A model generated the notes under the pieces. That model had not been told where the DNA came from and made no database searches. It was given only the letters and a program-made list of their open reading frames with translations. 64,000 nt of DNA from Rhodospirillales bacterium (GTDB lineage: Bacteria > Pseudomonadota > Alphaproteobacteria > Rhodospirillales > JASLQF01): contig JASLQF010000008.1 in NCBI GenBank assembly GCA_030744625.1, positions 5,168-69,167 on the forward strand. The letters run 5' to 3'. The stretch's first letter is position 1, and each line of letters starts with the position of its first letter. Both the position numbers and the translations under genes were made by a program. Below are positions 1,248-62,770 of the stretch, piece after piece.

Positions 1248-1458
1248 GCGATTTCCAAATTGTGCCGTGGTGGCCGTAACCGCCGAATGCGGCGGATCAT
1301 AGCGTCCTTTCGCCGGCGATTCGCCAAAAGTTGAGGCGCCTCACGAACACTTTACCTTTTGCCGGTTACCTCCATGTGCCAGAATGGATAGGTTATGGAC
1401 AGGTTCGCGAACCGCCCCGGCCATCCATAGGGCCGGCGGCAAGTTAAATGTGTCTGGC

Positions 1459-2043
1459 ATGACCGATGTTCAAGATTTTGACGGCGCGGAAGCGTACCTG
1501 ACAGGGCATATGCTGATCGCCATGCCGGGCATGCAGGACCCGCGCTTCGACAAGTCGTTGATCTACATGTGCGCCCATAGCCCCGAGGGAGCGATGGGGC
1601 TGGTCGTCAATCGGGCGTTGGAGTCGCTCACCTTCCCCGATCTCCTCGAGCAGCTCGAAATCGATTGCACCGCCGGCGACGAGCGCATCAACGTGCATTT
1701 CGGCGGGCCCGTCGAATCGGGGCGCGGATTCGTCCTCCATTCGGCGGACTACGTGCAGGAAGCCACCCTGGTGGTGGACAGCGAAGTCGCGCTCACCGCG
1801 ACCCTGGACATCCTCAGGGCGATGGCCGCCGGAGACGGCCCGCGCCAGAGCCTGCTGGCGCTCGGCTACGCGGGCTGGGGGCCGGGCCAACTGGATAGCG
1901 AGATCAAGGCCAATGGCTGGTTGCACGTGGCGCCCGATACCGACCTTCTTTTCGGTGCCGATCTCGACGGCAAATGGGAGCGTGCCATCCGCAAGATCGG
2001 CATCGACCCGAGGATGCTGTCCGAGGACGCCGGCCACGCGTGA
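1459..2043 (+). CDS. YqgE/AlgH family protein (UPF0301)
   Basis: ORF 1384..2043; family-typical GHMLIAMPGMQDPRFDKSLIYMCAHSPEGAMGLVVNR. ATG at 1459 is the more likely start. Confidence 0.88.
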   Translation: MTDVQDFDGAEAYLTGHMLIAMPGMQDPRFDKSLIYMCAHSPEGAMGLVVNRALESLTFPDLLEQLEIDCTAGDERINVHFGGPVESGRGFVLHSADYVQEATLVVDSEVALTATLDILRAMAAGDGPRQSLLALGYAGWGPGQLDSEIKANGWLHVAPDTDLLFGADLDGKWERAIRKIGIDPRMLSEDAGHA

Positions 2044-2050
2044 GAAGAAG

Positions 2051-2078
2051 CGGTGAGCGGTCAGCGGTCAGCGGTCAG
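2051..2078. repeat. Tandem heptamer CGGT(G/C)AG x4 in the convergent intergenic spacer
   Basis: Read directly: cggtgag cggtcag cggtcag cggtcag, just after the yqgE-like stop. Confidence 0.9.
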
Positions 2079-2117: not shown

Positions 2118-3401
2118 TTATCCCACCCGCGCCGCGAAGGAATCGAAACCCTCCACCCCGGCGATGGGGCCCAGGGCGGCGAGGACGGGCTTGCCGGCGG
2201 TCATGCGCCGCGCCGTCGCGGCGACGGCGGCGGCGTCAACGGCCTCGATCTTGGCGACGGTTTCGGCCACCGGGATGGGCCGGCCAAAGACCATCATCTG
2301 GCGGGCCAACTGCTCGCAGCGCGCCGACGTGCTTTCCAGGGACATCAGAATCGACGACTTGATCTGGGCGCGGGCGCGCGCCAGCTCGTCCTCGCCGACG
2401 CCGTCCCTGACCTTGAGGATCTCGTCGGCGACCACGGGGATGAGCTCGTCGGTCTCCCGCTCGCCGGTGCCCGCGTAGATGCCGAACAGTCCGCCGTCCC
2501 GGTAACACGAGAGGAAGGAATAGACGCTGTAGGCGAGGCCCCGTTTCTCGCGCACCTCCTGGAACAGGCGCGACGACATGCCGCCGCCCAAAATGGTCGA
2601 CAGCACCGAGGCGGCATGGAAATCTGAGTCCTCGTAAGACACCCCCTCGAAGCCCAGGACAACGTGGGCCTGTTCGAGGTCGCGGTTCTCGCGAAAATCT
2701 CCACCTGCGTAGCGGGTGGGCTCGGCCGCCGGCGCGGCGCCGGACGAAAGCCCCGAGAAGGCGTCGGCGGCGAGGGCGGCGAGGGTCTCGTGCTCGATGC
2801 GCCCGGCGCCGACCAGGATCATGCTGCCGGCGCCATAGTGCCGGCCCATGTAGTCGATGATCACGTCGCGTTCCATGGCGCCGACCAGCTCGGCGGTGCC
2901 GAGAACGGGGCGGCCCATGGGCTGGTCGGGATAGGCGGTTTCCTGGAAGTGGTCGAAGACGACGTCGTCGGGGGTGTCGAGGGCCTGGTTGATTTCCTGG
3001 ATGATCACCGAGCGCTCGCGTTCCAGCTCCTCGGCTTCCATCACCGAGTCCTGGAGGATGTCGGCGATGATGTCGACGGCAAGTGCCGTGTCCTCTTTCA
3101 GGACCTTGGCAAAATAGGCGGTGCTCTCGCGCGACGTGTAGGCGTTGAGATGGCCGCCCACGTCCTCGATCTCGGCGGCGATTTCGAGGGCGCTGCGCCG
3201 CCCGGTGCCCTTGAAGGCCATGTGCTCCAACAGATGCGAGACGCCGTTGATCTCGGGGTGCTCGTGGCGGGTCCCCGCTTCCACCCAGACGCCGACCGAT
3301 ACCGTCTCCACCGTCGCCATGGGGTCGGAGACCACCCTCAAGCCGTTGTCCAGGGTCGATACCCGTACATTGCGCCCATTGTCACCGTCGCCGCCGTTCA
3401 C
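2118..3401 (-). CDS. M16 family zinc peptidase (pitrilysin/processing-peptidase-like)
   Basis: 427 aa with the inverted zinc motif HLLEHMAFKGT; 4-bp overlap with upstream thrC. Confidence 0.9.
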   Translation of the reverse strand: MNGGDGDNGRNVRVSTLDNGLRVVSDPMATVETVSVGVWVEAGTRHEHPEINGVSHLLEHMAFKGTGRRSALEIAAEIEDVGGHLNAYTSRESTAYFAKVLKEDTALAVDIIADILQDSVMEAEELERERSVIIQEINQALDTPDDVVFDHFQETAYPDQPMGRPVLGTAELVGAMERDVIIDYMGRHYGAGSMILVGAGRIEHETLAALAADAFSGLSSGAAPAAEPTRYAGGDFRENRDLEQAHVVLGFEGVSYEDSDFHAASVLSTILGGGMSSRLFQEVREKRGLAYSVYSFLSCYRDGGLFGIYAGTGERETDELIPVVADEILKVRDGVGEDELARARAQIKSSILMSLESTSARCEQLARQMMVFGRPIPVAETVAKIEAVDAAAVAATARRMTAGKPVLAALGPIAGVEGFDSFAARVG

Positions 3402-8595: not shown

Positions 8596-10038
8596 TCAGG
8601 CCTTTTCTTTTCCGGCCTCGCTTGTCTGTGGTTCCTGTGGTTCCTGTGGTTTGCGCAGGAGCGCCGCCGCCACCGTCCAGATGAACAGGACGCCGCCGAG
8701 CACGGCTAAGAGGGCGCCGACGCCGTTCAGGGCCATGCCGGCGATGGCGCCCACGTCGTCGAGCCCCTGGGCGGCGCCGGCGGTCTTGCGCGGCGCGCCG
8801 TATCCGCCCGCCCAAAAGAGGCCGAGAGCGGCGACGGTCTGCCCGCCGGCGAACAGCCAGACTTGTGCGTAAAGCAATTTCCCGCGCCGTGGCGGCCGCC
8901 CCAGAAGCGGCAGGAAGACCACGAAGAACAGACCCATGAACGCCAGATTGATGCCGGCGATGACGCCGTGGTAGTGGGCCGGCGTGCGGGTGTCGGCGCC
9001 ATCGACGAAAAGTCCCAGCACGCCACCCGTGGCGAATACCGCGAACGACAGAGCCAGGCACAGGAAAGCCGGGTCCTTCCAGGACGGCGCCGCGCCGGCC
9101 CGCCATCTCCGCGCGGCGCCGAGTCCGATGACCGCCGCCACCACCGCCGCCGGCGGGGCGAGGGCGTACTGAAGGTCCGTGAAGGCCTCGGCCTGGACGC
9201 CGGAAAAGGGCTCCAGGGTGAAGTACAGGAACGGCCCCGGCAGGGCGAAGAGCGCGATCCACGCCGCCGCCCCCGTGAGCGGCCATTCCCTCGCCGCCCT
9301 GCCGCCCGGGGCGGCGGCGAGGACCCACCAGGCCGCCACGAGGAGCCCCACGTTGACGAACTGCAGCACGTGGCCGCCGCCCCAGAACAAGTCCTCGTTG
9401 AAGGCGTGGGAGGGCGGGTCGTCGGCGAGCCGCCAATAGGCCAGCCCGAAACAGAGCAGCGCCACCAGATAGGCGAAGCCGCTTGCCGCGATGGCGTGGA
9501 CAAAGGGGTCCCAGGCGGCGCGGCGCCCCGCCAGGTTGACCAGGAGGCGCAGGACGGCCAGTGCCAGGGCCCCGGCCAGCGCCACCAGTCCGGCGTAATA
9601 GAGCGGGTCGACGATGGCCGGCACGTAGTCGTTGAGGGTGGGCTCGCCGCGGTCCAGGAAGGCCGGCGCGAACAACAGCACCGACGCCCCCACCGCCATC
9701 CAGACGGCGAGGATGCCCAAAGGCGCGAGACGCGGCGCGCCCCCGGCCAGGCGCGCCGTGGCGAGGTGCAGGAGCGCCCCGAACACGGCGAGGAACCAGA
9801 CGACGAAGGAAAACACAACGTGGATGACCAGGCCCTTGTGGAAGAAGGCGGCCGGCCATGAAACAACCTCGCCCAGTCCCGGCGTGCGCGACAGCGCCAG
9901 CAGGAGCGCGAAGACGCCGGCCACCGCCAGTGACGATATGGCCAGGGCCGACCATCCCCAAAGCTCCCGCCGGGCGGCGGCGGTGGAGACGGCGTCGGCG
10001 AAACCCGGTGGCGGCGGGGAGGGGTGCGTTTCAGGCAT
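8596..10038 (-). CDS. Divergent heme-copper-oxidase subunit I-like polytopic membrane protein (function unknown)
   Basis: 480 aa, about 12 hydrophobic segments. DLFWGGGHVLQF resembles the helix [13 protein letters not shown] motif and TPAHYHGVIAG resembles the helix X HxH motif. Start overlaps the DUF420 stop by 8 bp. Confidence 0.6.
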   Translation of the reverse strand: MPETHPSPPPPGFADAVSTAAARRELWGWSALAISSLAVAGVFALLLALSRTPGLGEVVSWPAAFFHKGLVIHVVFSFVVWFLAVFGALLHLATARLAGGAPRLAPLGILAVWMAVGASVLLFAPAFLDRGEPTLNDYVPAIVDPLYYAGLVALAGALALAVLRLLVNLAGRRAAWDPFVHAIAASGFAYLVALLCFGLAYWRLADDPPSHAFNEDLFWGGGHVLQFVNVGLLVAAWWVLAAAPGGRAAREWPLTGAAAWIALFALPGPFLYFTLEPFSGVQAEAFTDLQYALAPPAAVVAAVIGLGAARRWRAGAAPSWKDPAFLCLALSFAVFATGGVLGLFVDGADTRTPAHYHGVIAGINLAFMGLFFVVFLPLLGRPPRRGKLLYAQVWLFAGGQTVAALGLFWAGGYGAPRKTAGAAQGLDDVGAIAGMALNGVGALLAVLGGVLFIWTVAAALLRKPQEPQEPQTSEAGKEKA

Positions 10039-10456
10039 GGGGATAAATATGCACCGCCATTACGTAGACGACGACGCCGGAGACGCCCACGTAAACCCAC
10101 AGCGGCCACGTCCACCTGGCGATGCTCCGGTGGTGCGCAAGCCGCCCCTTGAACGCCCGCAAGACGGTGAGTGGGACCAGCGGCACGATGGCGATGGCGC
10201 CCAGGATGTGGAGGATGAGAATGGAGAAATAAACGGGGCGAACCAGTCCCTCGCCGCCGAACTTGGCGAAGCCCGAGTTGGCCTTATAGATCAGATAGAC
10301 GACGAGGAAGGCGGCGGAGACCGCCAGCGCGGCGATCATGCACGCCCGATGGTGGCGCCATCGGCCCTGGCGGATGAAATGGTAGCCGGCGCCGAGAAGG
10401 ACGACGCTGAGGCTGTTGAACGCCGCGATGACGTGTGGCAGGTCGTTGATTTCCAT
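10031..10456 (-). CDS. DUF420 (CtaM-like) membrane protein
   Basis: Last 141 aa of ORF 10031..10681, from MEINDLPHVIAAFN; four hydrophobic segments and an HHR motif typical of DUF420. Confidence 0.8.
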   Translation of the reverse strand: MEINDLPHVIAAFNSLSVVLLGAGYHFIRQGRWRHHRACMIAALAVSAAFLVVYLIYKANSGFAKFGGEGLVRPVYFSILILHILGAIAIVPLVPLTVLRAFKGRLAHHRSIARWTWPLWVYVGVSGVVVYVMAVHIYPHA

Positions 10457-10473
10457 CGTTCGGCAATGAGGTG

Positions 10474-10557
10474 CTAGCCCGACATCTTGAGAAAGATGGC
10501 GGCGTACATGAAGAGGGCGAAGCACGCGAGAATAAGCGCCAGTACCCAGTTTTTCAT
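10474..10557 (-). CDS. Possible 27-aa single-TM micropeptide
   Basis: MKNWVLALILACFALFMYAAIFLKMSG, at the end of ORF 10474..10722 and 17 bp upstream of DUF420. No convincing RBS. Confidence 0.3.
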   Translation of the reverse strand: MKNWVLALILACFALFMYAAIFLKMSG

Positions 10558-10858
10558 CGATGGGGTTCCGGAATTGCGCCGCGCGGCAAGGAAACCGCGA
10601 CCCTCGTCCGCCGGCGAAAGGTGGCCGGCGGTGGGCCGCATCATCGCCATCGGCGCGCCGAAAATCAAGACTCGGCCCCACGGTGCCGGGCGGCGGTGTC
10701 CGGGAAGAACATTACAAATCATTGATTTTCAGTCGCAATTACCCAAATAAAACTTTGAAAGCACCTTATTCTCATGTTAGCAAGCGCGGGCCGGCATCGC
10801 CATCGCGCCGGGGAGAGCTTTCGGGGAGAGTTTTGGCGCATTTACTTTTCGAACAGCA

Positions 10859-11710
10859 TTGGATGGATCCATGTTGAAGAGACTTATGGTCTTGGCGCCG
10901 CTCGCGGCGCTGGGGGTCGTCACCGTGGGCGGAAGCGTTGTGGCGGGAATCGCGCGGCCTTGGCAGTTAGGCTTGCAGGAGCCCATGTCGCCGGTCATGG
11001 AAAAGGTGGACGGGTTCCACGACTTCCTGTTGGTGATCATCACGCTGATCGCGCTTTTCGTTCTGGCGCTGGTGCTTTACGTCGCCGTTCGCTTCAACGA
11101 GAAAGCGAACCCTGTTCCCTCGAAGACCACCCACAACTCGTTGCTCGAGGTGCTGTGGACGGTGATCCCGGTGATCATCCTGGTGGTCATCGCGGTGCCC
11201 TCGTTCAAGCTGCTCTATTACCAGGACCGCGTCGAGGAAGCGGACATGACGCTGAAGGTGATCGGCCACCAGTGGTACTGGTCCTACGAGTATCCGGACC
11301 ACGGGAACTTCGGCTTCGACAGCATCATGGTGCCCGACGACGAGCTGGAGGAAGGGCAGCCGCGGCTGCTGGCGACCGACAACAAGGTGGTGTTGCCCGT
11401 CGATACCAACATCCGCATTCTCTACACGTCGGAGGACGTCATCCACGCCTGGGCGATTCCGGCTCTGATCCAGAAGATGGACACGGTGCCCGGCCGCACC
11501 AACGAGAACTGGATGCGCATCAACAAGGAAGGCACGTACTACGGCCAGTGCTCCGAGCTGTGCGGCGTCAACCACGGTTTCATGCCCATCGTCGTCGAGG
11601 CGGTCTCCAAGGAAGCTTTCGCTGGATGGGTGAAGAAGGCGAAAGAGGAATTCGCGTCCTCCGAGGTGGAGCCGCTGAACATGGCGCACGCCGCCGGCGC
11701 CGCCCAATAA
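10859..11710 (+). CDS. ctaC: Cytochrome c oxidase subunit II (aa3 type)
   Basis: 283 aa; HQWYWSYEYPD and the CuA site CSELCGVNHGFMP. Confidence 0.95.
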   Translation: MDGSMLKRLMVLAPLAALGVVTVGGSVVAGIARPWQLGLQEPMSPVMEKVDGFHDFLLVIITLIALFVLALVLYVAVRFNEKANPVPSKTTHNSLLEVLWTVIPVIILVVIAVPSFKLLYYQDRVEEADMTLKVIGHQWYWSYEYPDHGNFGFDSIMVPDDELEEGQPRLLATDNKVVLPVDTNIRILYTSEDVIHAWAIPALIQKMDTVPGRTNENWMRINKEGTYYGQCSELCGVNHGFMPIVVEAVSKEAFAGWVKKAKEEFASSEVEPLNMAHAAGAAQ

Positions 11711-35444: not shown

Positions 35445-36509
35445 TTGGCGATCTATGATTTCGAACGCTGCAGCGTCTATCTGGTCGAAGACAATGCGTA
35501 TATCCGCAAGGTTGTCGAAAGCCTGCTGCATGGCATCAAGTTCGGCCGCGTATCGAGCGCACCGGACGGGGCGGAGGCCATAGAATTCTTCAAGACCCTG
35601 CACGCGGGCGCGCGGCTGGGCGGCGGCCCGGCGTTCGACGTGGTCATCTCCGACCTGGTGATGGCGCCCATCAATGGCCTCCTGTTCCTACGCTGGCTGC
35701 GCACCGCCAAGGAGTCGCCCAACCGCTTCATTCCCTTCATCATGCTTTCTGGTGCCGCCGACACCAAATACGTCAACGCGGCGCGCGACCTGGGCGTGAC
35801 GGAATTCCTGAGCAAGCCGTTCTCGGTCACGTCGGTCTACAAGAAGATACTCGAGGTGATCGACTATCCACGGCAATTCGTCGCCACCCAGAGCTATTTC
35901 GGACCCGACCGCGGGCGCCAGGAGAAGGGCCCACCGGACGAGGACCGGCGCAAGATGAAGTCCGACGACATCACCATCGTCTATTCCGCCGACAAGGTGG
36001 TAAAGCCGAAGGATGGATCGGACGTCTGGTATTTCCGCCTGTCCAACCATCTGAAGGAAAAGGTCGGCGGCATGGGGTCCGGCGAGCCGGGGGAGATACC
36101 GACGGCGCTCCTCGATGAGGCCGAGGAGGAATTGGAGCGTGCCGCCCTGGACTTTACCGATTGGGCCGCCGACTACCTGGCCAAGTTGTCCAAGCTGTGT
36201 GACCGGGCGCTTGAGAAGGAGGGCACGCGGAGCGCCGAGTTCGAGGAGATCAATCTGCTGGCCCACGAGCTGAGGGGCCAAGGTGGCACCTTCGGCTATC
36301 CTCTGATCACCGTCTTCGGCAAGATGCTTTTCGACGTGACCGGCGAGGGCTGCGTCGAGGACGACAACGCGGTGGAGATCGTCAAGGCGCACATCGACGC
36401 CATGCGCGCCGTGATCCGCGAAAAGGTGGCTGGCGACGGCGGCAAGGTGGGCCGCGCGCTTCTGAAGTCGCTCGAGGTGGCGATCGAAAGGCAGACCAAA
36501 GTGACGTGA
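35445..36509 (+). CDS. Response regulator receiver protein with a C-terminal Hpt-like domain
   Basis: 354 aa; REC motifs (VYLVEDN, VISDLVMAPINGL, SKPF); C-terminal HELRGQGGTFGY fits HxLKGxxxxxG; TTG start. Confidence 0.78.
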   Translation: MAIYDFERCSVYLVEDNAYIRKVVESLLHGIKFGRVSSAPDGAEAIEFFKTLHAGARLGGGPAFDVVISDLVMAPINGLLFLRWLRTAKESPNRFIPFIMLSGAADTKYVNAARDLGVTEFLSKPFSVTSVYKKILEVIDYPRQFVATQSYFGPDRGRQEKGPPDEDRRKMKSDDITIVYSADKVVKPKDGSDVWYFRLSNHLKEKVGGMGSGEPGEIPTALLDEAEEELERAALDFTDWAADYLAKLSKLCDRALEKEGTRSAEFEEINLLAHELRGQGGTFGYPLITVFGKMLFDVTGEGCVEDDNAVEIVKAHIDAMRAVIREKVAGDGGKVGRALLKSLEVAIERQTKVT

Positions 36510-46316: not shown

Positions 46317-46637
46317 TCAAGGAGTCGATGGGCCGCCACCGGGCATGATGTCCAGATAGCGCGAGCCCTCCTCGAAGCACATGTCGAATCCGAACTGCCA
46401 CCCCTCGCCATAGTCGGCGTCCTCGGCGATGCGCTTCACGTCCTTGAAAGTGATGTCCGAGTAGTGGTCGCGCCCTGCCTCCATGTATCCGTACTCGCAG
46501 CCATCAAACTTGCCGGTCCTGTAGGCCGGCGAGGCGTCCGGCGGCGATGCGGGGAAGGGCGGGAGCGGCGTGCACGCGGCGAAGACACCGCCGACGAACA
46601 CCATGATCGCCAAGTTTTTGCCGAGATTAGGACGCAT
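46317..46637 (-). CDS. Hypothetical lipoprotein (106 aa)
   Basis: Signal peptide with lipobox VFAAC; no family recognised. Confidence 0.5.
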   Translation of the reverse strand: MRPNLGKNLAIMVFVGGVFAACTPLPPFPASPPDASPAYRTGKFDGCEYGYMEAGRDHYSDITFKDVKRIAEDADYGEGWQFGFDMCFEEGSRYLDIMPGGGPSTP

Positions 46638-47005
46638 GGCTGCAATTCCTTCTTCGGCGGGCCCCCACCGCAGTATCCACCACGATCAAGGTAACCCACC
46701 GACACGGCGATTTAAAGACGTGGCAGGGGCGGCTCACGCAGGGTTTATCGGCGACGACAAAGGCCTGACCGCGCGAGGGCGCGCCAGCATCGGCAATGCT
46801 CCGTCGGCGTCCCGGTAATTACCGTACAGCCGTGAAATCAAAAGGGTTTCAGAAGGTTGCGTGCCTTGCCATCGGCCCCGCCGAAGCCTTACTATGGCGC
46901 GGTCGGCCTTTATGACAAGGTCCGCGAAAGGCAACGGCGCGCCGAATCGTCGAATGGACGACGGCGCGGCGATCTCGAAGCAATCGACGCAAGGTGGGGA
47001 AGGAC

Positions 47006-47410
47006 ATGGCAGACATACGGCAAAAGCGGGTCGTCGACAGCGGCGCCCTCCAGAAGACCATCGACAGCTTGAACGTGCCGCTTTCGGCGGTGGTAACGGA
47101 CGGCACCTACGTTTACGTCTCGGGTTTGCCGCCTTTCGATTCGGAGACCCAGACCATCGTCGGCGGCAGCATCGAGGATCAGACCGAGCAAGTGCTCAAG
47201 AACCTAGAGTTCGCGCTGGAATCGGCCGGCTCGTCCCTCGACAAGGTTCTCAAGACCACCGTCTACATTACCAACGCCGTCTATTTCGCACGCTTCAACG
47301 ACGTTTACCGCAAGTACTTCCCGATCGATCCCCCGGCCCGCACCTTCGTCCCCATAGCGTCGTTCCCCCTGGAGTTCGACCTGGAGATCGAGTGCGTGGC
47401 GCTCCTGTGA
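47006..47410 (+). CDS. RidA/YjgF family protein
   Basis: ORF 46994..47410; ATG 47006 follows GGGGAAGGA; VYVSGLPPFD, KTTVYI and PARTFV motifs. Confidence 0.87.
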   Translation: MADIRQKRVVDSGALQKTIDSLNVPLSAVVTDGTYVYVSGLPPFDSETQTIVGGSIEDQTEQVLKNLEFALESAGSSLDKVLKTTVYITNAVYFARFNDVYRKYFPIDPPARTFVPIASFPLEFDLEIECVALL

Positions 47411-47443
47411 CACGGCGCTAGCCAGCCGCCCGGGAGGAGCGCG

Positions 47444-48301
47444 ATGGCCAAGGACAAATCGAGCGCCGCGAGTTCCGAGAACCTGGGGACGGCGCATCCC
47501 GACAAGCTCTTGCGCGTCGGGGACCCCGCCTTCCAGCGCCTTCTCGACGCCGCCGAGGCGGCGGAGCATGGGGGTGGCGCCCGCCCGCCGGCGGCGAAGG
47601 CGCAGGTGCCGGTCTCGCCACCTGCGGCCAAGGACGCCGCCGTCGAAGTCAAGCCGTGGCGCGTCGTCGGCGATTGGTTCAGCGCGTGCAGCGGTGCTCT
47701 CGGGTGCCCTTGCCTGTGGGGTGACATTCCGCCGGAGGGGTACTGCCAGCGAACCATGTGCTGGAACATCCGCGAAGGCCATTACGGTGACGTGGGGCTC
47801 GACGGCCTCGCCGTCGCCGCCGTCGGCCACCTCACCGGGAGCCCCCTGGCGATTAGCCGCAGCGTCGGCTTTCTCATCGACGAGCGCGCCGGGAAGGACC
47901 AGCGCGAGGCCCTGTACACGATTTTTTCCGGACGCGCCCGCGGCAGGTTCGCCATCGCCGCCGACCTCACGGCCGAGTGGCTCGGGGTGACGTACGTGCC
48001 GCTCTCGGTTTCCATTGCGGACGACGCCTGGAGCGCCGAGTCGCCAGGGCTTCTGAAAGCGGCCGGCGCCCCCTTCCGTGAACTCATGGTGCCCGCCGAC
48101 CAGACCTGCGAGATCATCAACCCGCCGTATCCGGAGGCCGGCCCGGGGCCGGCGACCCTGGGCCGCGCCGAGGCCCACGAGGTCGATGCCTTCGACTGCA
48201 AGTGGAACTGGTCCGGCAAGTCGTCCTTGCGCATGAGGCTGGACTTTTCCGGCCCCGGCGACTTCCGCTGGACGGCGCACCGGGCAGCGGATTATCGCTA
48301 G
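47444..48301 (+). CDS. DUF1326 protein, paralog 1, with an N-terminal extension
   Basis: 285 aa. The core from VKPWRVVGDWFSACSGALGCPC onward is DUF1326-like. It is preceded by about 70 aa containing HPDKLLRVGD and a Pro/Ala linker. Confidence 0.75.
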   Translation: MAKDKSSAASSENLGTAHPDKLLRVGDPAFQRLLDAAEAAEHGGGARPPAAKAQVPVSPPAAKDAAVEVKPWRVVGDWFSACSGALGCPCLWGDIPPEGYCQRTMCWNIREGHYGDVGLDGLAVAAVGHLTGSPLAISRSVGFLIDERAGKDQREALYTIFSGRARGRFAIAADLTAEWLGVTYVPLSVSIADDAWSAESPGLLKAAGAPFRELMVPADQTCEIINPPYPEAGPGPATLGRAEAHEVDAFDCKWNWSGKSSLRMRLDFSGPGDFRWTAHRAADYR

Positions 48302-48321
48302 GAGCTGGGGGAAGACGTCGC

Positions 48322-49242
48322 ATGGGTGATCGGAAATACGGTCTCTTCAACCTTCGCGACCTGCGCAACATGCACCCGGACAAACTGTTTCGGGCCGGGG
48401 ACGCGACCGTCCAGGACCTTATCGCCGCGGCCGGGGACGCGGTGCCGGTGGAACCGCCGCCGGCGGCCGGGCCACCGCCGGCCGTCTCGGAAGCCACGGA
48501 CGCCGGCGGCATCGACGACGAAACCCGCGTTAGGGATGTGGTCGATCCGTGGGACACCGATCCCGAGCACCCGCTCTCCGAGGTCGAGGTCAAGCCCTGG
48601 CGTATCCTCGGCGACTGGTTCGACGTCTGCAACTGTTCCTTCCTGTGTCCATGCGAGTGGGCGGAGATGCCGACCATGGGCTATTGCGAGGCGCTCATGT
48701 GCTGGCGCATCCGCGAGGGGTATTACGGCGACGTCAGGCTCGACGACATGGCCGTCGTCGGGGTCGTGCATTTCATCGGCACCGTCATGGATCAGAACCG
48801 GGAGTTCGGTTGGTGCATGCCGGAGCGCGCCACCCGCGCCCAGCGCGAGGCCCTGCGCATGATCTTCTCGGGGCGCGCCGGCGGGCGCTTCCGCCTGTGG
48901 CACGATTTCACCATCAAGACCCGCGGCGTAAAGTTCGTCCCCCTCGAGATGTCGGTGACGACGGACGAGTGGAAGGTCAAGGTCCCCGAGCTGCTGGAGG
49001 GGTTGGCCGTTCCCTTCCGCGAGCTCATGGTGCCGCGCGGCCAGGTCAGCAAGATCATCAACGTGCCGCGGCCCGAGGCGGGGCCCGGTCCGGTCATCGT
49101 CGGCCGCGCCCACAAGAACGTCTGCGACGTGTTCGGCCACAAGTGGAACTGGGATTTCAAGTCCTCCAAGATGATGCCGCTGGACTTCTCGGGGCCCGGC
49201 GACTTCTCCTGGAGGGAGCCGCACAGCGAGACCAATAGATAG
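48322..49242 (+). CDS. DUF1326 protein, paralog 2, with an N-terminal extension
   Basis: ORF 48202..49242, from MGDRKYG. Core VKPWRILGDWFDVCNCSFLCPCEW. The extension shares HPDKLFRAGD with paralog 1. Confidence 0.75.
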   Translation: MGDRKYGLFNLRDLRNMHPDKLFRAGDATVQDLIAAAGDAVPVEPPPAAGPPPAVSEATDAGGIDDETRVRDVVDPWDTDPEHPLSEVEVKPWRILGDWFDVCNCSFLCPCEWAEMPTMGYCEALMCWRIREGYYGDVRLDDMAVVGVVHFIGTVMDQNREFGWCMPERATRAQREALRMIFSGRAGGRFRLWHDFTIKTRGVKFVPLEMSVTTDEWKVKVPELLEGLAVPFRELMVPRGQVSKIINVPRPEAGPGPVIVGRAHKNVCDVFGHKWNWDFKSSKMMPLDFSGPGDFSWREPHSETNR

Positions 49243-49250
49243 GAAAGGTC

Positions 49251-50051
49251 GTGAGCGGCGGAACCATCCTCGAGGCCATGTTGAAGCGCGACCGCGTGGT
49301 CGTGTTGGCCGCCCTTGGGGTGATCGCCGGCCTGGCCTGGGCCTATATCGGATATCTGGCCTGGGACATGCAGAGCATGGACGGCGGGGGCGCGGGAGGC
49401 CTCGGCCTCGAGGCCGCGATGCCGCGTACGCAGGCGTGGACCCTGGTCGACCTGGCGACGCTGTTCGTCATGTGGTCGGTGATGATGTTGGCCATGATGC
49501 TGCCCTCGGTGTCGGACATGCTGCTCGCCTTCGCCACCATCAACCGGCGCCGCCGCGAGCGCCAGGAGCCCTATGTCGCCACCGCCGTGTTCCTGCTCGG
49601 CTACCTGGCCGTGTGGATCGGCTTCAGCGCGGTGGCCACATTGATCCAGTGGGGACTGCAGAGCGCCGCGCTGCTGTCGCCGATGATGGTCGGCACCAGC
49701 CCCGTCCTTGGCGGCGCGTTGCTCATCGCCGCCGGAATTTTCCAGTGGACTCCCTTGAAGGACGTGTGTCTCGCCCACTGCCGCTCGCCGATGGGGTTCA
49801 TCCTGTCCGATTGGCGCGAGGGCACCGGCGGCGCCGTGCTCATGGGGCTGCACCATGGCGCTTTCTGCGTCGGGTGTTGCTGGGTGCTCATGGGGTTGCT
49901 GTTCGTGGCCGGGGTGATGAACCTGCTGTGGGTCGCCGCCATTACCGTGTTCGTGGTCATCGAAAAGCTGGCGCCGCGCGGCGACATGGTGGGGCGGGTC
50001 ACGGGGGGCGCCCTGGTCGTTGCCGGCGTGGCGCTTTTGGTCCAGGCTTGA
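49251..50051 (+). CDS. DUF2182 predicted metal-binding integral membrane protein
   Basis: 266 aa; polytopic, with CLAHCRSP and HHGAFCVGCCW motifs; GTG start. Confidence 0.75.
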   Translation: MSGGTILEAMLKRDRVVVLAALGVIAGLAWAYIGYLAWDMQSMDGGGAGGLGLEAAMPRTQAWTLVDLATLFVMWSVMMLAMMLPSVSDMLLAFATINRRRRERQEPYVATAVFLLGYLAVWIGFSAVATLIQWGLQSAALLSPMMVGTSPVLGGALLIAAGIFQWTPLKDVCLAHCRSPMGFILSDWREGTGGAVLMGLHHGAFCVGCCWVLMGLLFVAGVMNLLWVAAITVFVVIEKLAPRGDMVGRVTGGALVVAGVALLVQA

Positions 50052-50377
50052 GGTGGGCGTGCAAGGGCTTTTCGGCGGGTATCGCGGCCGCTGCCATGGT
50101 GGCCGCCTCCTGCGCCACCTACGAATGGAGAAATCCCAATGTGCCGGAGCAACTTTGGCGGCGCGACGAGGCCGATTGCGTGGGCCGGGCGGCGGCCAAG
50201 GTGGAGGAGGAAGCGGCCCGCGAGGAACGCTACGGCGGCGGCGGGGCGACGGCGCGCGACGATCGCGGCACCGCCCGGGAAATCATGATGGTCCGCTTCG
50301 AGATGAAGAAACGCCAAGCCCGCCTCGTCGAGAACTGCATGAGGGCCAAGGGCTACGGCAAGGCCGAGGCCGAATGA
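50048..50377 (+). CDS. Hypothetical small lipoprotein
   Basis: End of ORF 49436..50377. A TTG at 50048 overlaps the DUF2182 stop (cTTGAgg). Lipobox VAASC. Start uncertain. Confidence 0.4.
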   Translation: MRWACKGFSAGIAAAAMVAASCATYEWRNPNVPEQLWRRDEADCVGRAAAKVEEEAAREERYGGGGATARDDRGTAREIMMVRFEMKKRQARLVENCMRAKGYGKAEAE

Positions 50378-58210: not shown

Positions 58211-58725
58211 TGGCGGGGACCGCAAAGACCGCCGCCGCCGTCCGCGACCCGGAACGGGACCGCCTGCGCCTGTGGATCAAGCTTTTCGACACCACCCACA
58301 TGATGGAGCGCGAAGTGCGCTCGGGCCTGCGCGCCCGTTTCTCCTGCACCTTGCCGCGGTTCGACGTCATGTCGGTGTTGGTGCGCACGACGGACGGCAT
58401 CACCATGGGCGACCTGTCGCGCCGGCTCAGGGTGTCGGCCGGCAACGTCACCGGCGTCGTCGAGCGCCTGGTCAAGGACGGGGCGGTGAAGCGCTGGTCG
58501 CCGCCGGCGGACCGCCGCACGTCGCTGGTGGCGCTAACGGCGCGCGGGCGCCGCGCCTTCGAAAGGATGGCGGCGGTCCATAAGCAATGGATCGACGAGA
58601 TGCTGGGTACCCTCGGCGACGACGAAGTGGTGGCGCTGATGCGCCATCTGGACAGGGTGAACGGCTCGGTGGATACCAGTACACATAACCAGGAAGGCGA
58701 TTTCCATGAATATGAGCGAACATAA
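58210..58725 (+). CDS. MarR family transcriptional regulator
   Basis: Last 171 aa of ORF 57793..58725, from [11 protein letters not shown]; winged-helix region [26 protein letters not shown]. Confidence 0.85.
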
Positions 58726-59515
58726 GCCCCAACATTTCGAGTGGTCGTGCGAGGACGCGGTCGCCACCATCACCTTGAACCGGCCGGACAAGAAGAACCC
58801 GCTGACCTTCGAATCCTACGCCGAGCTGCGCGACACTTTCCGCGACCTCGCCTACGCCGACGACGTGCGGGCGGTGGTGATCACCGGCGCCGGGGGCAAC
58901 TTCTGTTCGGGCGGCGACGTATTCGAGATCATCGAGCCCCTCACCAAGATGGACATGAAGGGCCTGCTCGCCTTCACCCGCATGACCGGCGACTTGGTGC
59001 GCACCATGCGCAACAGCCCGCAGCCGGTCATCGCCGCCATCGACGGGGTGTGCGCTGGTGCCGGCGCCGCCATCGCCATGGCCGCCGACCTGCGCTACGC
59101 AACGCCGGAAACCAAGACGGCGTTCCTCTTCACCCGCGTCGGCCTGGCCGGATGCGACATGGGCGCCTGCGCCATGCTGCCCAGGCTCATCGGCCAGGGT
59201 CGGGCCTCGGACCTGCTGTTCAGCGGCCGCTCCATGAGCGCCGAGGAGGGCGAGCGATGGGGCTTCTTCAATCGGCTGTGTGCTACCGACGAGCTTCTTG
59301 GGGAGGCTCGGAAGTCGGCGGCGCGGCTCGTCGAAGGGCCCAACTTCGCCCACATGATGACCAAGACCATGCTCAACCGCGAATGGGACATGAGCCTCGA
59401 TTCGGCCATCGAGGCCGAGGCCCAGGCGCAGGCCCTGTGCATGCAGACGGCCGACTTCGAACGCGCCTTCAAGGCGTTCGCGGCGAAGGAAAAGCCCGTC
59501 TTCGAAGGCAACTGA
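58706..59515 (+). CDS. Enoyl-CoA hydratase/isomerase family protein
   Basis: 269 aa; [13 protein letters not shown] and [17 protein letters not shown] motifs. Confidence 0.9.
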
Positions 59516-59527
59516 GGACACGCCCCG

Positions 59528-60719
<1,192 letters not shown>

Positions 60720-60727
<8 letters not shown>

Positions 60728-62366
60728 GAAGACGGCCCACGTCGATACCTTCGCCGCCGACAATCTGCCGCCCCGCGACCAGTGGCCGGCTTTCAGCTTC
60801 GACCGCCCCGAGTTCCAGTACCCGGGGCGCATGAACTGCGCCACCGAGCTTCTTGACGATCAGGTGGCGGCGGGGTTCGGCGGCAAGGCGGTCTTTTACA
60901 CGCCCCGCGAGACCTGGACCTACGGCGAACTCCGGGAGCGCGCCAACCGCATCGCCCGCGTGCTGATCGAGGACTTCGCCATCGAGCCCGGCAACCGGGT
61001 AATGATCAGGGCCGCCAACAATCCCATGTTCGTGGCGTGCTGGTTCGCGGTGGCCAAGGCGGGCGGCGTCGTCGTCGCGGTAATGCCGCTGCTGCGCGCC
61101 GGGGAACTCGCCACCATCCTGGAGAAGGCGCAAATCGGGCTGGCGCTGTGCGACGCGCGGTTGGCCGAGGACATGGAGGAGGCGCGCCGCCGCGCCCCGG
61201 TGTGCGAGCGCATCTGTTATTTCAGCGGTTCCGGCGAAGCGGGCGCCGGCGCCGAGCTGGAGGACAGGGCCGGCGCCAAATCCGCCGACCTCGAGAACGT
61301 CGACACGGCGAGCGACGACGTCGTGCTCATCGCCTTCACCTCGGGCACCACGGGCCAGCCCAAGGGGACCACGCACTTCCATCGCGACATCATCGCCATG
61401 TGCGACGCCTTCCCGCGTTCCTGCCTCAAGGACGCGCCCGACGACATTTTCATCGGCAGTCCGCCCATCGCCTTTACCTTTGGCCTCGGCGGCCAGGTGG
61501 CGTTTCCCATGCGTGTCGGCGCCTCCACGGTGCTCCTGGAGGCGGCGCCGCCGGAGGCCCTGCTACAGGGCATCGAGGACTTCAAGGCGACCATCTGCTT
61601 TACGGCGCCGACCGCTTACCGGGCCATGTGCGCGCTCCTCGAAGGGTTCGATCTCTCGTCCCTGCGCAAGTGCGTCTCGGCCGGCGAGACCCTGCCCCTG
61701 CCCACCTTCGAGGCGTGGCGCGCCGCCACCGGGCACCGCATCATCGATGGCCTGGGCTCGACCGAGATGCTACACATCTTCATCGCGGTACCCGAGGACA
61801 AAACTCTTGCCGGCGCGACGGGGAAGCCCATTCCCGGCTACGAGGCCAGGGTCGTCGATGACGAAATGAAGACCGTGGCGCCGGGCACGGTCGGCCGCCT
61901 CGCCGTGCGCGGCCCCACCGGGTGCCGCTACCTGGCCGATGCGCGCCAGCGCGAATACGTGGTCGACGGGTGGAACCTGACCGGCGACGCCTACAAGATG
62001 GATGAGGACGGATACTTCTGGTTCCAGGCGCGCATCGACGACATGATCATCTCGTCGGGCCACAACATATCGGGGCCCGAGGTGGAAGCGGCGCTGCTGT
62101 CCCACGATGCCATCGCCGAGTGCGCGGTGGTCGCCTCGCCCGATGACGAGCGCGGCAACATCGTAAAGGTGTACGTGGTGCCGCGCTCCGGCGTCAGCGG
62201 CTCGGAGCAATTGACCAAGGAGCTGCAGGACCACGTCAAGGCCACCATCGCGCCCTACAAGTATCCGCGCGCCATCGAGTTCACCGACGCCCTGCCCAAG
62301 ACCCAGACGGGCAAGGTACAACGCTTCGTGTTGCGCCAACGCGAACAGACGAGAAGAGGAACATGA
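60720..62366 (+). CDS. AMP-forming aryl-CoA ligase (2-aminobenzoate/benzoate-CoA ligase-like)
   Basis: 548 aa; [25 protein letters not shown] and [10 protein letters not shown] motifs. Confidence 0.87.
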
Positions 62367-62770
62367 ACATGCGCATCCTTCAGCCCCCCGGATGGAAACG
62401 GCCGAGCGGCTATGCCAACGGCGTTTCGGCGAGCGGCCGCCTGGTCTTCGTCGCCGGCCAGGTCGGCTGGGACGAGAACGAGGTCATGCGCTCCGACGAT
62501 TTCGTCGACCAGGTACGCCAGGCCCTGAGCAACATCGTGGCCATTCTCGCCGAGGATGGCGCCGGCCCCGAGCACGTGACCCGCATGACGTGGTACTGCA
62601 CCGACAAGGGCGACTACCTGGACCACCTGGCGGACGTGGGCCGGACCTACCGCGAGATCATGGGCAGGAACTTCCCGGTGATGACCCTGGTCGAGATCTC
62701 GGGCCTCGTCGAGGACCGTGCCAAGGTGGAGATCGAGGTCACCGCCGTGGTGCCCGAGGGTGACGCATAG
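62363..62770 (+). CDS. RidA/YjgF family protein
   Basis: 135 aa; SGRLVFVAGQVG and MTLVEISGLV motifs; ATGA overlap with the ligase. Confidence 0.83.
   Translation: MNMRILQPPGWKRPSGYANGVSASGRLVFVAGQVGWDENEVMRSDDFVDQVRQALSNIVAILAEDGAGPEHVTRMTWYCTDKGDYLDHLADVGRTYREIMGRNFPVMTLVEISGLVEDRAKVEIEVTAVVPEGDA

Follow-up and report, generated by a model that had tools for sequence, protein, structure and literature searches.

Two adjacent genes for DUF1326 proteins, in a stretch of 64,000 nucleotides from a Rhodospirillales bacterium (contig JASLQF010000008.1; hereafter the window), code for N-terminal extensions ahead of the known domain, and the question raised by the locus is what these extensions are and what they do in the operon to which the genes belong. 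This operon comprises five plus-strand genes, encoding a RidA-family protein, the two DUF1326 paralogs, a DUF2182 membrane protein and a small exported protein of 109 aa, with intergenic spacings of 33, 20, 8 and −4 nt. The tight one-strand arrangement had been noticed in an earlier inspection of the letters without database searches (the sequence-only reading) and is borne out. The best explanation overall, with a probability of roughly 0.6, is that the operon is a lineage-specific elaboration of the DmdE/DmdF cassette carrying a split N-terminal module of two types. The bare DUF2182/DUF1326 pair is already known; the N-terminal tag was previously undescribed.

The extensions comprise 78 residues in paralog 1 and 99 residues in paralog 2, each formed by a unit of about 26 residues and a Pro/Ala-rich linker. 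The 70–100 extra residues with a shared motif that had been described for the window are thus present, and they recur in every ortholog found, where the N-termini are kept residue by residue, with the HPDKL motif and the Pro/Ala-rich linker in both copies. The sequence-only reading had itself considered that these residues might not be translated, with true starts near the VKPW core; the coding signals speak against this. Shine-Dalgarno sites were found for both long starts (GGAGGA 6 nt before ATG 47444 and GGGGGAAG before ATG 48322), and the G+C content at third codon positions (GC3) is 0.87 in the extension of paralog 1 and 0.83 in that of paralog 2. The start of paralog 2 was assigned to ATG 48322, because the upstream part of its longer open reading frame (ORF), at 48202–48321, has a GC3 of 0.55 and overlaps paralog 1. 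Substitutions in the extensions relative to orthologs on other contigs favor the third codon position, with counts of 7/8/27 and 21/19/50 at positions 1/2/3 for paralog 2. On this evidence, the extensions are translated. In one relative (L014, 2160–2400), the paralog-2 ortholog is frameshifted within the Pro/Ala linker on a contig at 4x coverage, and the gene caller therefore began it 58 residues late; the frameshift is probably an assembly error.

The distribution of the module was studied with a profile of 47 columns from the N-termini, searched against 1.84 billion representative proteins. Of the 7 proteins obtained at E ≤ 0.001, 5 reach E ≤ 1e-10. Three of these are DUF1326 orthologs; another, 251 aa long, has a cupin domain behind two tandem units and a Pro/Ala linker, and the last is a truncated double-unit fragment of the cupin type. 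The two weakest matches are repeat-rich, low-complexity sequences, and an Acidimicrobiia locus (L027) with a match reaching query residue 26 was not recovered by the profile. In the source genome the module is carried by paralog 1, by paralog 2 and by just one further protein, 215 aa long and encoded on contig C42, in which two tandem units and a linker precede a RidA domain; all three score at least 52 bits, the next best match 12 bits, and no further unit-like protein was found in this genome. The cupin core was not found in the source assembly; a sister genome (G029) has both DUF1326 genes and the cupin. On related metagenome contigs, RidA fusions form 6 clusters and cupin fusions 11, and conservation of the units in the RidA fusions equals that of the catalytic core, with a linker that differs in sequence and length. 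Of 300 genomes sampled from the order, 2 were found to contain the module, and these belong to one genus; among 226 DUF1326 relatives from species-representative genomes, only 1 has the extension. Isolated module sequences gave no match in Pfam even at E ≤ 10. Sought beyond the DUF1326 pair, as had been proposed, the HPDKL module was therefore found on a RidA-family protein and a cupin of the same lineage, which the sequence-only reading had not anticipated; these sequence searches show it to be portable, and it was found only in one uncultured Rhodospirillales lineage. LysM-like and SAP/helix-extension-helix-like readings of the module, made from the motif alone, were dropped for want of any score.

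The units fall into two types. Type A has the consensus LRxMxPD[KR]LFRxGDxT[VI]QxLxAxAG and is marked by LR..M at the start, F at position 10, T at position 16 and A..AG at the end; type B has the consensus [AM]HPD[KR]LxRVGDPxFQxLLDAAE, with GDP at positions 13–15 and LLDAAE at the end. Paralog 2 carries type A, paralog 1 type B, and the RidA fusion A and then B on one chain. Mean identity of the paralog-2 unit is 0.58 to tandem unit 1 and 0.45 to unit 2, and the paralog-1 unit shows the reverse preference (0.56 to unit 2, 0.42 to unit 1). Hidden Markov models (HMMs) trained on the paralog-2 or the paralog-1 units alone sorted the RidA-fusion units correctly in 6/6 and 6/6 cases, with margins of 10–27 bits. 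From this classification, each system contains one A and one B unit, placed on one chain in the RidA fusion and, less clearly, in the cupin, and on two chains in the DUF1326 pair.

Structure prediction with AlphaFold2 (AF2) was carried out on both arrangements. For the RidA fusion, modeled from an alignment of six sequences, residues 8–68, which span the A-B tandem, have a predicted local distance difference test (pLDDT) score of 70–85, with the RidA core below 50. Strands are predicted at residues 22–24 (LFR) and 49–51 (LLR), with a helix after each. The single A unit of paralog 2 has a pLDDT of 34–54 and shows short helices only, without a strand; the score then climbs from 60 to 84 along the segment GIDDETRVRDVVDPWDTDPEHPLSE, and the core reaches 85–98. 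This result is consistent with A and B folding together via strand pairing. A Foldseek search of the RidA-fusion model against the PDB gave nothing significant. Strand-paired dimerization is typical of ribbon-helix-helix proteins, and the two short strand-plus-helix units here appear to pair into one small domain in a similar way; they differ in having no Pfam sequence match and no PDB structural match, and their strands lack the alternating polar face of the DNA-binding members. The Pro/Ala-rich tether resembles the inter-domain linkers of 2-oxoacid dehydrogenase E2 components, which serve as swinging arms.

From the unit types and the AF2 model we infer the function of the module. A and B would join by their short strands to form a single small strand-helix-strand-helix domain, by which the DUF1326 paralogs would either be held as a hetero-oligomer on flexible tethers or jointly show one composite docking domain; we place this slightly below even odds. 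A hetero-oligomer is predicted because there are two diverged copies, each with one half of a two-part tag.

The published function of the pair gives the cassette its context. PF09948 bears the Pfam name PpoB2, copper chaperone, after the Marinomonas mediterranea protein (COG5486), which hands copper to the tyrosinase PpoB1 (PMC2855505). The DUF2182/DUF1326 pair has been named DmdE/DmdF (Fu et al., EMBO J 2026, PMC12992908); in the context of dimethylsulfoniopropionate (DMSP) demethylation, growth of Ruegeria on DMSP requires both proteins, purified DmdF of Ruegeria consumes H2O2, and pairs outside Rhodobacterales are phylogenetically distinct, without a link to DMSP genes (PMC12992908). The former statement that neither family has an assigned function is consequently outdated. 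In the window, a PF09948 membrane gene follows paralog 2 on the same strand after 8 nt, making this a DmdE/DmdF-type cassette, and its product contains a Met-rich helix (residues 74–85), CLAHC (173–177) and HHGAFCVGCC (201–210). Among the best 80 DUF1326 relatives in species-representative genomes, a PpoB2 gene lies within 6 kb in 34 loci and at least two DUF1326 copies are present in 8.

Compared with Ruegeria lacuscaerulensis and other Roseobacter members, the likeness lies in adjacent genes for a DUF2182 membrane protein and a DUF1326 Cys-cluster protein, placed in one operon in a catabolic and stress context. Here, however, dmdA, acuI and dmdR are not linked to the operon, and no GcvT-type demethylase is present among the genes at 35445–57438 by Pfam annotation. 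The order is DUF1326-DUF1326-DUF2182, with the soluble partner duplicated and one copy missing a conserved Cys; both copies carry the N-terminal module and linker, which are absent from the other DUF1326 relatives examined, and RidA and the small exported protein share the operon. The Roseobacter dmdEF operon also includes a DinB-family gene, which here comes after the module-bearing cupin, elsewhere in the lineage. As for Marinomonas PpoB2, the membrane protein of the window matches the same family and has Met, Cys and His clusters, but its partner is the DUF1326 pair: neither a tyrosinase nor any recognizable copper enzyme is in the operon, and the operon neighbors yielded no tyrosinase or multicopper oxidase domain.

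The DUF1326 cores contain a five-Cys cluster, C-x-C-x3-C-P-C-x10-C. In the alignment of 50 family members, C103, C109, C111 and C122 (paralog 2 numbering) are invariant (50/50), and C105 is Cys in 45/50, with Gly solely in the five paralog-1 orthologs. The five residues are complete in paralog 2, against four in paralog 1; an additional Cys at position 127 is common to both. Paralog 1 has therefore lost a single Cys (C105 to Gly), not the first Cys pair as previously read. An acetoacetate-decarboxylase-like fold, the best Foldseek match of paralog 2 (E 6e-5), was rejected, with a TM score of only 0.34–0.40, an rmsd of about 12 Å and no functional lead. Solved structures searched by sequence with the DUF1326 profile and with PpoB2 gave no match.

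In the proposed mechanism, the cores would act as DmdF-type thiol or metal-dependent peroxide/redox scavengers. The PpoB2-type membrane protein would supply them: its CxxxC and HH...CxxCC motifs, on the cytoplasmic side, could deliver a soft metal (most likely copper) to the Cys cluster. For its part, RidA would clear reactive enamines and imines arising from the neighboring tryptophan/anthranilate and oxygenase genes. This combined scheme, drawn from the literature on homologs, is put at about even odds. The Cys-based metal or redox system with a duplicated, diverging partner proposed from the sequence alone fits the published copper-transfer and H2O2 data; a family function is thus documented, but it leaves the duplication, the RidA link and the N-terminal module unexplained.

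Several points weigh against the cassette-with-split-module explanation. All carriers come from one narrow lineage, and the independent observations amount to about three protein families rather than dozens. The same HMMs sorted the more divergent cupins in only 8/12 and 10/12 cases, with small margins and among closely related sequences. The pLDDT contrast between the single unit and the tandem is weak evidence, as the alignment depths differ between paralog 2 and the RidA fusion, and only secondary structure and pLDDT speak for the A-B strand pairing. One paper reports the peroxidase activity of DmdF, for a distant homolog; there is no copper-specific gene within this operon; and a shared metal-delivery role of the module is unlikely, because RidA needs no metal.

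Different functions of the module were weighed against this evidence. In a more extensive version of the pairing idea, A and B would be halves of an undescribed split pairing/docking domain that brings the paralogs together as a heterodimer and recruits RidA and the cupin to a shared site, giving a shell-less clustering of enzymes against peroxide, imine and metal stress; in this full form the proposal is rather unlikely. The same low rank is given to docking on a common hub, which might be a membrane protein, a chaperone or a thioredoxin-like redox partner; both unit types would be needed to bind it, and the paralogs would not have to bind each other. That the module precedes three unrelated enzyme folds, with a long flexible linker in between, suits such a hub, as do the presence of one A and one B unit in each system and the stress- or redox-related neighbors of the carriers (CMD/AhpD-like and thioredoxin genes at the RidA fusion, DinB after the cupin and amidohydrolase). 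Nevertheless, no neighbor gene is common to the three locus kinds (DUF1326, RidA fusion and cupin), the genome has no other unit-like protein, and A-B folds alone with fair confidence in AF2, so that a partner is not needed to explain the structure.

The build of the module, a short conserved N-terminal peptide and a poorly conserved linker on diverse small enzymes, one of them from a reported peroxidase family, also resembles the cargo peptides of bacterial microcompartments and encapsulins, where unrelated enzymes of one organism likewise share a short, conserved peptide at one terminus, joined by a variable linker. Such an encapsulation or targeting role is quite improbable, since no encapsulin or microcompartment shell gene was found: the source genome (88% complete) has no match to PF04454 or PF19307 (encapsulin families 1 and 2) and only chance-level matches to BMC-H PF00936 (best E 0.23) and BMC-P PF03319 (best E 0.21), and no shell gene lies near any carrier locus. 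Besides, the unit is of two types and is predicted as strand plus helix, not as a single amphipathic helix, with the tandem forming a small domain in the model. Finally, the extensions could be start-site artefacts or neutral leftovers, with true starts near the VKPW core and a functionless motif, as in-frame GTG codons within both extensions and the low AF2 confidence for a single unit would allow. This we consider barely credible given the coding signals of the long starts described above, the conservation of the RidA-fusion units at the level of the catalytic core while the linker varies, and the recurrence of the unit on three protein families. The split two-type module on a DmdE/DmdF cassette thus remains the preferred explanation.

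All carriers sit among oxidative-stress or reactive-intermediate genes. The RidA fusion lies in a conserved block with a CMD/AhpD-like gene, a thioredoxin and an aspartate dehydrogenase (L103, G000:C42:14000-26629, at 8674–10941 on the minus strand; also L117, 4990–7036); aspartate dehydrogenase yields iminoaspartate, a plausible RidA substrate. The module-bearing cupin gene overlaps the start of a TRZ/ATZ-type amidohydrolase gene, which is followed by a DinB-family gene (L111/L112/L113, 8001–10813; L102, 3443–5598).

The features of the operon are collected in Table 1. Both paralogs are far above the PF07040 gathering cut-off of 25 bits, and orthologs of paralog 1 are P0005–P0007 and P0016. 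The scan between the five genes gave no promoter-like and no convincing terminator-like site.

Table 1. Coordinates of the operon and its elements in the window.
Feature	Position	Strand	Remarks
Promoter-like site TTGCCA-18-TACTAT	46866..46895	+	about 110 nt upstream of RidA; consensus match only
RidA-family enamine/imine deaminase, 134 aa, first operon gene, without module	47006..47410	+	PF01042
DUF1326/DmdF-like paralog 1, 285 aa	47444..48301	+	PF07040 at residues 81-259, E 1e-38, 133.6 bits
Type-B module unit of paralog 1, residues 14-39, LGTAHPDKLLRVGDPAFQRLLDAAEA	47483..47560	+	best score against unit 2 of the RidA fusion
Pro/Ala-rich linker of paralog 1	47561..47674	+	sequence and length vary among orthologs
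Cys cluster of paralog 1, CSGALGCPC-x10-C-x4-C	47687..47761	+	Gly at second Cys of CxC
DUF1326/DmdF-like paralog 2, 306 aa	48322..49242	+	PF07040 at residues 102-275, E 1e-39, 136.6 bits
Type-A module unit of paralog 2, residues 14-39, LRNMHPDKLFRAGDATVQDLIAAAGD	48361..48438	+	best score against unit 1 of the RidA fusion
Pro/Ala-rich linker of paralog 2	48439..48507	+	pLDDT <50
Paralog-2-specific conserved segment GIDDETRVRDVVDPWDTDPEHPLSE, immediately ahead of the core	48508..48582	+	kept in P0001-P0003 and L016
Full Cys cluster of paralog 2, CNCSFLCPC-x10-C, plus extra Cys at position 127	48628..48702	+	
PpoB2/DUF2182 (DmdE-like) polytopic membrane protein, 266 aa	49251..50051	+	PF09948, E 2e-68, 230.6 bits
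Small exported protein, probable lipoprotein, 109 aa	50048..50377	+	no family match

The first gene, starting at ATG 47006 with a further GTG upstream at 46994, matches PF01042 with 99.3 bits (E 2e-28) and TIGR00004 with 100.4 bits, slightly below the cut-off of 106.25. Its product has the conserved Arg of the PAR(S/T) motif, present as PART in the alignment, which together with PF01042 places it in the RidA subfamily. Its position in the operon is kept in L001–L007, L014 and L017. RidA linkage as a general trait of DUF1326 loci was rejected, as it appeared only in the same genus, in 1 of the 80 loci (the sister genome); at L057 a second RidA gene is near DUF1326, but 4 kb off and on the other strand.

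For the small exported protein, TTG 50048 is the sole in-frame start that retains the conserved hydrophobic N-terminus; as read originally, this start overlaps the DUF2182 stop (TTGA). Relatives L007 and L014 have a GTG start instead, 1 nt past the DUF2182 stop. The protein contains VAAS|C at residues 18–22 and two more Cys in the mature part, and the Cys after the hydrophobic stretch is kept in all four orthologs read, with LVAS|C in L007, LAAA|C in L014 and VTAF|C in L001. The hydrophobic N-terminus and the conserved Cys agree with the lipoprotein of about 109 aa that had been proposed, but Phe at −1 in L001 is atypical for a lipobox of the form [LVI][ASTVI][GAS]C, and by its sequence the protein is only probably a lipoprotein. 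It has no match in Pfam or NCBIfam. A role as a general third component of DUF1326/DUF2182 loci was discarded, as it occurs only in close relatives. At 8624–9028 in L001–L004 the gene caller gave a 104-aa ORF in the wrong frame; there too the small protein starts at a TTG that overlaps the stop codon of the PpoB2 gene. Another small gene with a lipoprotein-like product (106 aa, VFAA|C, no family match) lies at 46317–46637 on the minus strand of the window, and every related locus has it in this position, divergently oriented to RidA.

The source genome (3.2 Mb, at the completeness given above) has five DUF1326 genes and one PpoB2 gene, the latter in this operon. One orphan DUF1326 gene (L012, G000:C34:26195-29668; 1363–2064, minus strand) is divergent from ORFs at 2487–3231 (plus strand) for a MerT-like membrane protein, whose first helix contains CC, and a periplasmic protein of MerP/HMA type with GMKNCPSCP, a further hint of soft-metal handling by the DUF1326 family. 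In a Rhodospirillaceae metagenome-assembled genome (L018, 4788–6651), a paralog-2 ortholog is reduced to its last 55 residues (91% identical) and is followed by PpoB2 (83%) and then by a third DUF1326 type, with a MAQEEI... N-terminus, which is an orphan in the genome of the window; the upstream DNA looks compositionally different and may reflect a rearrangement or a chimeric assembly.

Upstream of the operon are genes for a Mo-oxidoreductase, a Rieske/VanA-type oxygenase, an FprA-like reductase and a GntR regulator, and downstream those of the tryptophan/kynurenine and 2-aminobenzoyl-CoA pathways; the genes at 35445–57438 also include a PAS kinase, a tryptophan dioxygenase and an FAD/OYE protein. 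Directly behind the small gene, L001-type relatives have the genes for enoyl-CoA hydratase, acyl-CoA dehydrogenase, CoA ligase and RidA, which are located at 58706–62770 in the window; in L007 and L014, tryptophan dioxygenase and kynureninase come next. From the gene order (window segment 50570–58210 in the L001/L007 comparison), the window has about 8 kb that L001 lacks, with the PAS kinase, tryptophan dioxygenase, kynureninase and FAD/OYE protein.

The DUF2182/DUF1326 pair is widespread, and reports on its mechanism differ between a copper chaperone and a peroxidase. With two diverged copies, each bearing one half of the tag, this locus offers a natural handle on the organization of the soluble partner. 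The narrow distribution of the module limits its general importance. Within this lineage, however, the tag is a very small, portable and sequence-novel module on three unrelated enzymes. Should it serve for pairing or docking, it would represent a compact, naturally occurring connector between proteins and would hint at how bacteria without compartments co-localize detoxifying enzymes.

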